Source of the DNA: a virus | Taxonomy: Duplodnaviria; Caudoviricetes | Reading direction: 5' to 3' (one strand) | IMG/VR virus record: IMGVR_UViG_2706794911_000004 | Coordinates: 1 to 64,000 of that record | Length of the DNA: 64,000 nucleotides | Shown here: positions 1 through 1,896 of the stretch, in pieces | Layout: each line of letters begins with the position of its first letter | How positions within the stretch are numbered: the stretch's first letter is position 1 | Notes under the pieces: model-generated | What the model was told of the DNA's origin: nothing | The model's database searches: none | What the model saw: the letters and a program-made list of their open reading frames with translations, nothing else | Position numbers and translations under genes: made by a program

Positions 1-279
1 CTATAAAATGATAGCAATAAAACCACTGTTACCATCGTTGATGATCTTCTGCAATGTTTTTTGAAGCTTAATTCTAGTATCTTCTGGCATTACAGTCAAT
101 TTATTTTGCAATTGCTCTTTCACCATATCATGAAGGGATTTTCCAAACATATTCGTTTCCCATATTTTTTCTGGATTTTGTTCAAACTCATCTAGCAGAT
201 ACTTTACCAGCTCTTCACTTTGTTTTTCTGTACCTACTACAGGGGAAACTTCTGTAGAAATATCAGCGCGAATGAAGTG
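1..279 (-). pseudogene. spoIVA: 3' fragment (92 codons) of interrupted host spoIVA, probably restorable by excision
   Basis: HFIRADISTEVSPVVGTEKQSEELVKYLL...IWETNMFGKSLH...KTLQKIINDGNSGFIAIIL matches the conserved SpoIVA C-terminus (B. subtilis ...IGTEKQSEELVRYL...ERIINEGSGGLIAIIL, recalled from memory). Confidence 0.92.
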
Positions 280-1896
280 TTTTATTAGGGACAAACGCAA
301 ATCCTTTCTATGGTAAACTTCCACCGCCGCCCCTGTTTTTAGGGTGATTTCCATTTCAACTTCATTATCGTTCTCACCCTTACTTACAGTTACTCGGTCT
401 AAGAATTTGTCTATTATCTCAGTATCTATTTTTTCAATAAAATCTTCTTTAGACAACATTTTTTCTATATCTGTTAGCTGACTAGCTAGATCAGATGTAG
501 CTTTATTGAGTTTTTCGTATTGCTCAATTTGTTCTTCAAGACTCTCTATAGTTTGGTTGAACTCATCATTTCTCCTTTTAAACTCATTATTTCCGATCAT
601 ATCATTCAAGCTCAGGTCCAGTAGCTTATCTTTACGTTTATTGATCTGATCTACCTGTGCTTTTAGACCTTTTATATCTTTATCGTGGTCTGCATTCTCT
701 ACGTTAGCTCTGTAAACATCCATTAGATAGTCTGCAAATCTAGACTTGTGTCGCAGCACGAAATTTAATATCTGTTTCAGTATAAAGTTTATTTCCTCAG
801 TGTAGATTGTGGGAAGATCACAAGCTTTTTTCCCCCCGTTCCTGTATTCCTTGCATTGCCAGACTTCTTTATCAGGCACGGTCTTATACTTGTATAGGGT
901 TCTCCATAGTGGGTTACCATGTTCCTTACAAAATAACTTACCCGAGTATAGATATTTATTCGTATAGCTTTCTTCTTTCGACATCACCTTACCCCTTTTG
1001 TGCTCCAGTAGTTCGTTAGCTTTGTCCCATACCTCCTCGCTGACAATAGGTGGGGCGGCCTCAGTATCTTTATAAATGATCCAATCATTCTTATCTAGGT
1101 ACTTCCTCTCCCTAGTTAAGAAGTCAACTATCCTTGTACGATTAGCTGTGAAGTATCCCTTGTACCTTGGATTCCTTATTATATAAGAGAGGGTGGAGTA
1201 AGACAAAGGATTGCCATTATTATTAACATAACCTTCTTCTTTTAAAATTTCCCCTATTCTTCTGAACCCAATTTTCCGACAGTACAGTTCAAATATTTTT
1301 CTAATCATTTTAGCCTCATCTTCTATAATACAGAGTTTACTATCAACTAGCTCGTAGCCCCACATTCTAGGGTTAGCATATATCTTACCGTTTTCTGCTG
1401 ATCTTTTCTTCCCCCACTTAACACGTTCACTAATTTTCCTGCTCTCTTCTTGTGCCATCGAGGCCATTATAGTCAAACGCAACTCAGAGTCGGGGAGGAG
1501 TGTATTAATGTTATCACTTTCAAATAATACCCCTACCCCATTTTTAAGTAGTTCCCTAGTGTACTGAATGCTATCCAGTGTGTTCCGAGCAAACCTTGAT
1601 ACTTCTTTAGTTAAGACAAGGTCAAACTTCTTAAGCCTTGCGTCATCTACCATTTTATTAAAAGCATCTCTTTTATCTGTTCTAGTACCAGACAAAGCTT
1701 TATCTACGTAACCATCTACAAAAATCCAATTGTCTTTACCTTTTATAAAGCTCTCGAAGTATTGTACCTGATTTTTAAGAGATTTTAATTGTTCTTCCTC
1801 TTTAGTAGATACTCTGGTATAAAAAGTTACTCTTAAGTTTAGGTCATATATAGATTTTCCTAGCATTAGCTCATTTCTTATCGTGTATAAGTCCAT
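1..1896 (-). CDS. Large serine recombinase (SpoIVCA/SprA-like) fused in frame to the SpoIVA C-terminus
   Basis: YTRVST catalytic motif, KEVSRFARN, recombinase domain, Zn-ribbon (LFCKEHG...WQC...C), coiled coil; last 92 aa are SpoIVA-like. Confidence 0.95.
   Translation of the reverse strand: MDLYTIRNELMLGKSIYDLNLRVTFYTRVSTKEEEQLKSLKNQVQYFESFIKGKDNWIFVDGYVDKALSGTRTDKRDAFNKMVDDARLKKFDLVLTKEVSRFARNTLDSIQYTRELLKNGVGVLFESDNINTLLPDSELRLTIMASMAQEESRKISERVKWGKKRSAENGKIYANPRMWGYELVDSKLCIIEDEAKMIRKIFELYCRKIGFRRIGEILKEEGYVNNNGNPLSYSTLSYIIRNPRYKGYFTANRTRIVDFLTRERKYLDKNDWIIYKDTEAAPPIVSEEVWDKANELLEHKRGKVMSKEESYTNKYLYSGKLFCKEHGNPLWRTLYKYKTVPDKEVWQCKEYRNGGKKACDLPTIYTEEINFILKQILNFVLRHKSRFADYLMDVYRANVENADHDKDIKGLKAQVDQINKRKDKLLDLSLNDMIGNNEFKRRNDEFNQTIESLEEQIEQYEKLNKATSDLASQLTDIEKMLSKEDFIEKIDTEIIDKFLDRVTVSKGENDNEVEMEITLKTGAAVEVYHRKDLRLSLIKHFIRADISTEVSPVVGTEKQSEELVKYLLDEFEQNPEKIWETNMFGKSLHDMVKEQLQNKLTVMPEDTRIKLQKTLQKIINDGNSGFIAIIL
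255..305. other. Prophage attachment junction (att site), crossover near 279-282
   Basis: SpoIVA similarity starts abruptly at the His codon (277-279), where SpoIVA would read APSL-H; upstream is unrelated phage sequence. Confidence 0.75.

Follow-up and report, generated by a model that had tools for sequence, protein, structure and literature searches.

A prophage inserted in spoIVA encodes a serine recombinase predicted to change its C-terminus with integration state

The left end of IMG/VR virus record IMGVR_UViG_2706794911_000004 (Duplodnaviria; Caudoviricetes) raises the question of how a phage recombinase came to end in a piece of the sporulation protein SpoIVA and whether that piece serves the enzyme. 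Positions 1 to 64,000 of this record, referred to here as the window, correspond to positions 23,884–87,883 of contig 28 of a 5.39-Mb genome. The window begins with a single open reading frame (ORF) whose stop codon, at positions 1–3, is the spoIVA stop codon. Pfam matches in its 631 amino acid product were Resolvase (residues 25–171, E 1e-31), Recombinase (residues 192–298, E 5.8e-23), Zn_ribbon_recom (residues 316–371, E 4.6e-8) and SpoIVA_C (residues 556–631, E 5.6e-34), the last in full length (profile positions 1–76 of 76). The junction between the two parts reads ...KDLRLSLIKH / FIRADISTE..., with the His540 codon at positions 277–279. A preliminary description of the locus had proposed a recombinase ORF without a stop before the junction that ends at the spoIVA stop codon, and the frame and its Pfam domains bear this out. 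The span that it gave to the chimera, 1–330, contains a real recombinase-SpoIVA junction, but only 1–279 is derived from spoIVA whereas 280–330 is phage DNA of the recombinase gene.

The phage part of the hybrid has the features of a large serine recombinase (LSR), namely a catalytic Resolvase domain with the nucleophilic serine, and a Recombinase domain and zinc ribbon with an inserted coiled coil. The catalytic, DNA-binding and coiled-coil parts are all N-terminal to the junction. The R28-V29-S30 catalytic motif was invariant in 36/36 aligned sequences, which indicates that the recombinase is intact, and the His at the junction was invariant in the same alignment. The attachment (att) sites also resemble those of LSRs, being short, with a small common core and with imperfect inverted-repeat arms in the phage site attP (arms judged by eye). 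An assembly artefact was rejected as the origin of the fusion, as the same in-frame fusion at the same His was found in 39 other proteins from separate assemblies.

The genome was found to have a single SpoIVA ATPase domain and a single SpoIVA_C domain; the two are encoded about 109 kb from each other on one strand of one contig. The upstream half of spoIVA (locus L001, 892–2304, minus strand) follows gpsA and encodes full ATPase (E 6.5e-120) and middle (E 1.1e-56) Pfam domains. The spoIVA sequence runs to ...FGVKLRANAPSLH, and 38 extra codons (IDRDKMML...LLPVA) follow the same His codon up to a stop. Joining the two halves at the His codon gives ...APSLH + FIRADISTEVSP. Twenty-nine spoIVA loci of relatives were examined; five were outside the search pattern, one of these being a split gene, and all 24 pattern-matched intact genes showed the sequence of the joined halves (consensus across the crossover, FGVKLRA(N/K)APSLH F(I/L/M)(R/K)ADI.TE(V/I)SP). 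Since the two halves meet at one His codon and match the relatives, their rejoining would rebuild the conserved SpoIVA exactly. As in elements of the skin and SPbeta type, the insertion lies within the coding sequence of a mother-cell sporulation gene, both halves of which are otherwise intact, and precise excision is predicted to restore the spoIVA frame and the conserved protein.

The two phage-side arms, at attL and attR, form an imperfect inverted repeat (TTTGTC.CT..., judged by eye), and the same was seen at a native viral locus, L003. The arm motif GTTTGT was present at the same spacing in L083 and in a clade of related elements described below. Genes within the prophage part of the window matched PHROGs for a tape measure protein, a DNA polymerase, a ribonucleotide reductase and a sigma factor. 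One public DNA dataset, consisting of contigs, contained the integrated form only; one of its contigs spans window positions 1–2000 with no joints or loose ends, and the dataset may itself be the source of the DNA analysed here.

The C-termini of the best 120 homologues of the hybrid (7,902 significant among 7,999 scored) were sorted by script. In 40 of the 120, the window's protein included, SpoIVA sequence followed in frame at the same His, so that the fusion is a real and recurrent arrangement. Native forms without a SpoIVA part made up 22 of the 120 and had a tail of 34–45 amino acids after the His. A further 52 ended in ...SVC..QYI or a close variant, and six combined an end of this type with a short unconserved extension. 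The 22 native tails shared a pattern of two hydrophobic positions, an Arg invariant in 22/22, an Asn-rich loop and an alternating hydrophobic strand. A profile of these tails, omitting the first 8 att-encoded residues, was compared with 77 kb of this genome in six frames; the 38-codon extension at attR was the best of 1,913 fragments (E 0.0024), the next having E 0.38.

As the attR tail is homologous to the C-termini of the 22 SpoIVA-less relatives, attP is placed within the recombinase gene, 38 codons before its natural stop, and the 38 codons at attR are identified by this homology as the recombinase's own 3′-end, the predicted exchange of 3′-ends being in frame. Pairs of hybrid and native proteins were consistent with this. 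P0006 (hybrid) and P0024 (native) were 84% identical over residues 1–544 without gaps, P0004 (hybrid) and P0018 (native) 81% identical over residues 1–542 without gaps, and neither pair showed similarity after the His. One native form is encoded within a 66-kb viral contig, away from its ends and flanked on either side by phage genes, and its core and arms are similar. A tblastn search of 50,697 phage records returned nothing closer than 38.8% identity and no named phage with this integrase. The preliminary description had placed att inside the integrase gene, with different C-termini in the integrated and excised states, and had proposed reconstruction of attP to obtain the native one; the tail recovered at attR, the native relatives and the 81–84% identical pairs agree with it on both counts.

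The reading frame at the junction was compared across 19 genome loci (L083–L101). One of these (L083) was in frame at the His and two (L088, L090) were in frame 8 codons further into spoIVA (junction .../TEVSPIVG). In 13 of the 19 (L084–L087, L089, L092–L097, L099, L100) the SpoIVA C-terminus lay directly after the recombinase but out of frame. The remaining three were uninformative, L091 being without a SpoIVA part, L098 having another tail and L101 ending at a contig end. Proteins of the out-of-frame clade were 46–49% identical to the query, used the same spoIVA codon and stopped two codons past the crossover. At the 8 of these 13 loci where junction DNA was inspected they ended in ...SVC..QYI or a variant, with the stop in or just after spoIVA CAT-ATG-A; a junction motif search gave nothing at the other 5. 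The extensions of this clade were 5–30 amino acids long with no common pattern.

The attP-arm motif GTTTGT encodes (R)-L-(S), with an invariant Leu, in the in-frame clade and V-C, within an invariant SVC, in the out-of-frame clade. By this comparison the two clades use one att geometry in two reading frames, and conservation of the protein beside the junction is in part conservation of a DNA site. Frame conservation within the in-frame clade can likewise be attributed to common descent of one att geometry and is therefore not independent evidence of selection. The sister clade uses the same site with an enzyme that ends only two codons beyond the crossover, and spoIVA-targeted recombination therefore does not need the SpoIVA tail. 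Conservation of the fusion frame in related elements had been suggested as a check on the preliminary description, with random frames or stops near att counting against it. The result was divided: the hybrids among the best 120 homologues are in frame at one His, but most of the 19 loci are not, and a homologous clade in another frame does stop close to att.

Five more distant recombinases served to root a tree built from the first 500 residues. In it, the out-of-frame clade had a support of 100 with L096 outside it, and the in-frame group a support of 90 with L083 outside it; hybrid and native forms were interleaved and the branching order of the groups was left unsettled. An ancestral in-frame state was therefore dropped; an earlier FastTree tree, which had nested the out-of-frame clade within the in-frame forms, included the tail columns and is unreliable. 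In-frame fusion was seen in two of three verified junction types (three of four with an unverified sigma-like type), neither of which is significant (P about 0.26 for two of three at a 1-in-3 chance).

AlphaFold models of the window's hybrid and of a native relative (P0017) had a mean predicted local distance difference test (pLDDT) score of 74.6 and 79.2, respectively. Both models showed a catalytic domain, a recombinase domain, a zinc ribbon with a long coiled coil and three C-terminal strands (499–530), and the att-encoded stretch was disordered in both (pLDDT below 50). Long helices were present at residues 366–481 of the hybrid model. In the native model two further strands followed the att stretch as a beta-hairpin tail, with block means of 76 and 60 (moderate confidence). 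In the hybrid, the SpoIVA part was modelled as helical at low confidence (pLDDT 35–64), and in this model it and the linker are loosely attached. The model of the native relative matched the integrase structures of SPbeta, PhiC31 and Bxb1 (best E 3.5e-21).

Under the mechanism proposed here, the bacterial site attB would be a spoIVA His codon, located where the middle domain meets the C-terminal domain. As spoIVA and the recombinase gene are co-oriented and the crossover at the ACA core would fall in the same codon phase in both, integration would exchange the two 3′-ends. The prophage would then encode recombinase residues 1–540 joined to the last 91 amino acids of SpoIVA, as well as a truncated SpoIVA (N-terminal and middle domains) with a 38 amino acid recombinase tail. 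The integrating enzyme would be made from the closed gene after infection or excision and the excising enzyme from the prophage, the two differing after residue 540. It would fall to the hybrid to remove the element and so rebuild spoIVA, and this would presumably happen in the mother cell, as it does for skin and SPbeta. The anatomy and its recurrence, the native form and a sister clade that does without the SpoIVA tail are shown by the data, whereas we infer that the element is excised when the host sporulates, that the hybrid is active and that its tail is neutral.

Taken as a whole, we consider it probable that the element is a prophage of ~109 kb in spoIVA with attP inside the recombinase ORF, that the 3′-ends are exchanged in frame, and that the SpoIVA piece is most probably tolerated as a passenger, attached by a flexible linker. 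The passenger role is proposed because the sister clade has no SpoIVA residues and because this part of the model appears loosely attached. If the swap has a functional effect, it is more likely to come from loss of the native tail than from gain of the SpoIVA domain. Several points weigh against this interpretation. Production and activity of the hybrid are predicted from the DNA alone, and a second in-frame junction type exists 8 codons further into spoIVA (L088, L090 and genome G432). The native tail keeps its pattern among clade members that are as little as about 45% identical, and it can belong to the recombinase only in the excised state; a functional difference between the two states may therefore well exist, which fits poorly with a purely neutral exchange. 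The work underlying the connection between the SPbeta integrase C-terminus and directionality is reportedly that of Abe and colleagues in 2021. Published C-terminal effects count here as well: according to passages in PMC11722253, the extreme C-terminus of SPbeta integrase bears on directionality, and F532 near the C-terminus contacts the recombination directionality factor (RDF) and matters for directionality, and a passage in PMC12286644 proposes that C-terminal beta-strand extensions of the zinc-ribbon domain in some LSRs (SCCmec recombinases) may block the RDF site. By analogy, these passages make a functional difference through tail loss plausible. A directionality switch encoded by integration state is conceivable, though we regard it as rather unlikely: the native beta-hairpin tail would be an integration-mode module, perhaps sitting on the zinc ribbon near the coiled-coil hinge where directionality factors bind, and its removal would change activity, RDF dependence or stability, so that the attP form would integrate and the prophage form would be set up for excision. 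The tail's length and pattern are kept in 22/22 native forms and in this genome, in contrast to the patternless sister extensions, which suggests selection on the excised-state recombinase, the only state in which the tail would be selectable as part of the enzyme. The two modelled tail strands follow three strands of the body, and Mx8, in the passage of PMC6070905 that treats it, is a case in which attP within int alters integrase behaviour on integration. Against such a switch, the sister clade recombines at the same site without a conserved tail in either state, and the tail was modelled at moderate confidence only. It is less probable still, and in our view unlikely, that the enzyme carries a covalent record of its own reaction, in which the hairpin sets the attP form to integrate while the prophage can make only a tail-swapped enzyme set for excision; directionality would then be encoded partly by the position of att in the gene and not only by a separate directionality factor.

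The preliminary description had instead sought the switch in the borrowed SpoIVA tail. The C-termini do differ between the states, but a switch made of SpoIVA residues is unsupported given a sister clade that lacks them, and we consider it very unlikely that the domain itself is used, whether by bringing the hybrid to SpoVM at the forespore surface or by pairing it with truncated or intact SpoIVA, so as to time or confine excision or to disturb coat assembly. The borrowed piece is the whole of SpoIVA_C, including the extreme C-terminus, and the role that the preliminary description cited for this C-terminus is stated in passages of bioRxiv 10.64898/2026.07.09.737436, which describe its contact with SpoVM and propose that it pairs when SpoIVA forms dimers; in-frame fusion at two different spoIVA positions would also fit such a use. 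However, the 13 related loci out of frame at the same site have no fusion, tethering a recombinase to a membrane has no evident benefit for cutting a chromosome, two in-frame types among three verified would readily arise by chance, and the SpoIVA part was modelled at low confidence. A dead end, in which spoIVA has been permanently inactivated in a non-sporulating host and the long ORF is an accident of recent insertion, seems the most improbable of all. The sole public run, with contigs of the integrated form, would be expected of it, but both spoIVA halves are intact with full-length matches to all three domains, the junction residues are the same as in intact relatives, the recombinase retains its invariant catalytic motif and the arrangement recurs in many genomes.

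The frequency of split spoIVA was surveyed in 401 genomes sampled across the class, of which 299 had a SpoIVA_C match. Among the 150 matches listed, of 305, 15 were in open frames of ≤135 amino acids and five in frames of ≥584 amino acids, and all twenty were fetched. Four of the 15 short frames had a recombinase directly upstream in another frame (G041, G216, G321, G064), eight broke at the same His codon with an att-like arm and no recombinase match in the 250–2,500 nucleotides upstream, and three were at contig ends; at least 12 of the 15 broke at the same codon. The four with an upstream recombinase are further genomes of the clade that stops at att, in addition to the 13 loci above. The five long frames comprised two in-frame hybrids of the downstream-junction type (G368, G432) and three intact spoIVA genes with long upstream open frames. 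Splits of spoIVA therefore look common among the matches listed. In the window's own taxonomic family (24 genomes) the hybrid was found in this genome only.

At L196, L203, L204 and L207 (G276, G235, G323 and G418) spoIVA fragments were cut at the same His beside an att-like arm, with other cargo upstream and no recombinase gene within 2.5 kb upstream; either the recombinase gene is sited in another part of the element, or the elements have decayed or are non-autonomous, both being possible explanations. Contig 11 of G323 encoded SpoIVA_C twice (64,072–64,299 and 69,494–69,721, 5.4 kb apart; L204), one copy being in a full-length open frame and the other a fragment broken at the usual His codon. 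The inserted element may thus supply a substitute 3′-end for spoIVA, in which case the gene would stay whole.

Coordinates of the features of the left end are collected in Table 1. Matches to sigma-70-like promoters in the region numbered 10 against 9.1 expected by chance. The small ORF upstream of the recombinase had relatives (tblastn E ≤ 0.008) in at least 30 related loci, mostly 100–200 nucleotides upstream of the recombinase; they share the motif ...INER.Y..G.I....Y.K.KA.I.KL and include those of outgroup recombinase families. No Pfam or PHROG family was matched by this ORF. A prophage-encoded RNA polymerase sigma factor also lies near the recombinase end (window 2770–3513, minus strand; PHROG 351, E 3.3e-41).

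Table 1. Features at the left end of the window and the basis on which each was assigned
Feature	Position (bp)	Strand	Basis
Hybrid ORF, 631 amino acids: large serine recombinase (residues 1–540) and SpoIVA C-terminus (541–631)	1–1896	-	ORF list, Pfam
spoIVA 3′ fragment: host DNA left of the crossover; stop 1–3, SpoIVA_C about 4–231	1–279	-	Pfam
attL, about 25 bp either side of the core; phage arm with GTTTGT 11 nucleotides before core CA	255–305		Motif comparison
Crossover core ACA (gene strand), overlapping the His codon; only bases common to attL and attR at the junction	278–280	-	Direct comparison of attL and attR
Phage-derived recombinase body: Resolvase 1384–1824, Recombinase 1003–1323, zinc ribbon 784–951	280–1896	-	Pfam
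Further parts of the recombinase body: coiled coil about 454–801; three C-terminal strands, residues 499–530	280–1896	-	AlphaFold model
Prophage, left 63.7 kb; element about 108.8 kb core to core, extending to contig position about 132,952 (attR)	280–64000		PHROGs; attR in L001
Sigma-70-like promoter match TTGTAA-17-TATAAT just upstream of the recombinase start (weak evidence)	1931–1959	-	Promoter scan
Small ORF, 50 amino acids, directly upstream of the recombinase; candidate accessory or directionality factor	1970–2122	-	tblastn

At the other end of the element, a 12-bp hairpin overlaps the stop of the attR-side 38-codon tail (folding, −17.3 kcal/mol, z −3.3), though a terminator scan of the native 3′-end did not flag it. 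Rfam gave no match for the 750-nucleotide attR-proximal spacer or for the 530-nucleotide spacer before the recombinase tail. The prophage genes near attR (L192, 8025–12305) were read by eye as an RtcB-type RNA ligase, a nucleotidyltransferase, an HNH-type protein and a CCA-adding enzyme, a possible tRNA repair set. Just downstream of the spoIVA stop (L193, 3044–5264; contig 28, about 21,040–23,260) are three adjacent same-strand genes that appear by eye to be tyrosine-recombinase-like; if so, another mobile element abuts the 3′-end of spoIVA.

Related serine recombinase ORFs with a different tail (...ISQAQVSRLEK.AL...) were seen at L098 (514–2208), L113 (2959–4704) and L114. We take this tail to resemble sigma-factor region 4, and these ORFs may be in-frame recombinase-sigK hybrids of skin-like elements; no Pfam sigma domain was matched at E ≤ 0.01 by the tails of L098 and L113. 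On the tree the sigma-like-tailed recombinases were sister to the downstream-junction spoIVA type. More than 20 further, more distant recombinases (L120–L162, e.g. L135 3001–4668; 38–41% identical) had the common tail ...GH(T/I)(F/C)KKMIE(A/S)YE.G.., which may be the C-terminus of another host gene gained in the same way.

What is new here is a spoIVA-intervening prophage family in which a serine recombinase changes its C-terminus with integration state. spoIVA, which encodes a universally conserved coat morphogenetic ATPase, is thereby added to the few sporulation genes that excisable elements are known to split. With att inside the integrase gene, the integrating and excising enzymes would be different proteins. 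How the directionality of LSRs is controlled is of current interest in genome engineering, and an effect of C-terminal extensions on the binding of directionality factors has been proposed. In this family a native tail, a host-domain tail and no tail occur naturally at a single site and can be compared, with the sister clade as a built-in control. For annotation, a 631 amino acid "recombinase family protein" and a 470 amino acid "SpoIVA" in such genomes should be recognised as junction products.

Reviews and introductions name sigK, spsM, spoVFB, spoVR, gerE and yabG as interrupted sporulation genes in the relevant passages of PMC10747680, PMC4191935 and PMC5025042. A full-text literature search, which did not cover supplementary tables, found spoIVA in other contexts only and no paper naming it as a split gene; the supplements of a survey of Firmicutes sporulation genes (bioRxiv 10.1101/2022.02.25.481979) list frameshifted sporulation genes and may mention a split spoIVA. 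Like SPbeta in spsM (SprA/SprB) and skin in sigK (SpoIVCA; CD1231/CD1234 in C. difficile), the present element lies inside a mother-cell sporulation gene, has a large serine recombinase at one end and would rebuild the gene by precise excision; the modelled fold of its native relative also matches SPbeta integrase structures. It differs from both in its target, spoIVA. SPbeta attP is situated between sprA and sprB, outside the integrase ORF, according to a passage in PMC8270828, whereas attP here is predicted inside the recombinase ORF, with the enzyme C-terminus changing with integration state.

A literature search on attP within an integrase gene brought up only an archaeal paper. As in Mx8, the predicted attP lies within the integrase ORF and integration gives the gene a new 3′-end and its product a new C-terminus. 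Mx8 Int is a tyrosine recombinase, whereas the enzyme here is of the serine type by Pfam, and the arrangement is thus Mx8-like without the element being a member of that group. For Mx8, the review passage in PMC6070905 describes a recombinant int whose enzyme is active with changed properties. The new tail here comes from a host protein domain, and no such report was met for Mx8. SCCmec LSRs likewise have extra beta strands after the zinc-ribbon and coiled-coil domain; their extension is permanent, whereas the last two strands here would be present only in the excised state. In mycobacteriophages such as BPs, attP lies inside the repressor ORF, and integration changes the C-terminus of the repressor with loss of a degradation tag (integration-dependent immunity). 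The element in spoIVA resembles these phages in that attP is placed in a phage ORF and the C-terminus would be a covalent record of integration state, but the ORF altered here is that of the recombinase itself.

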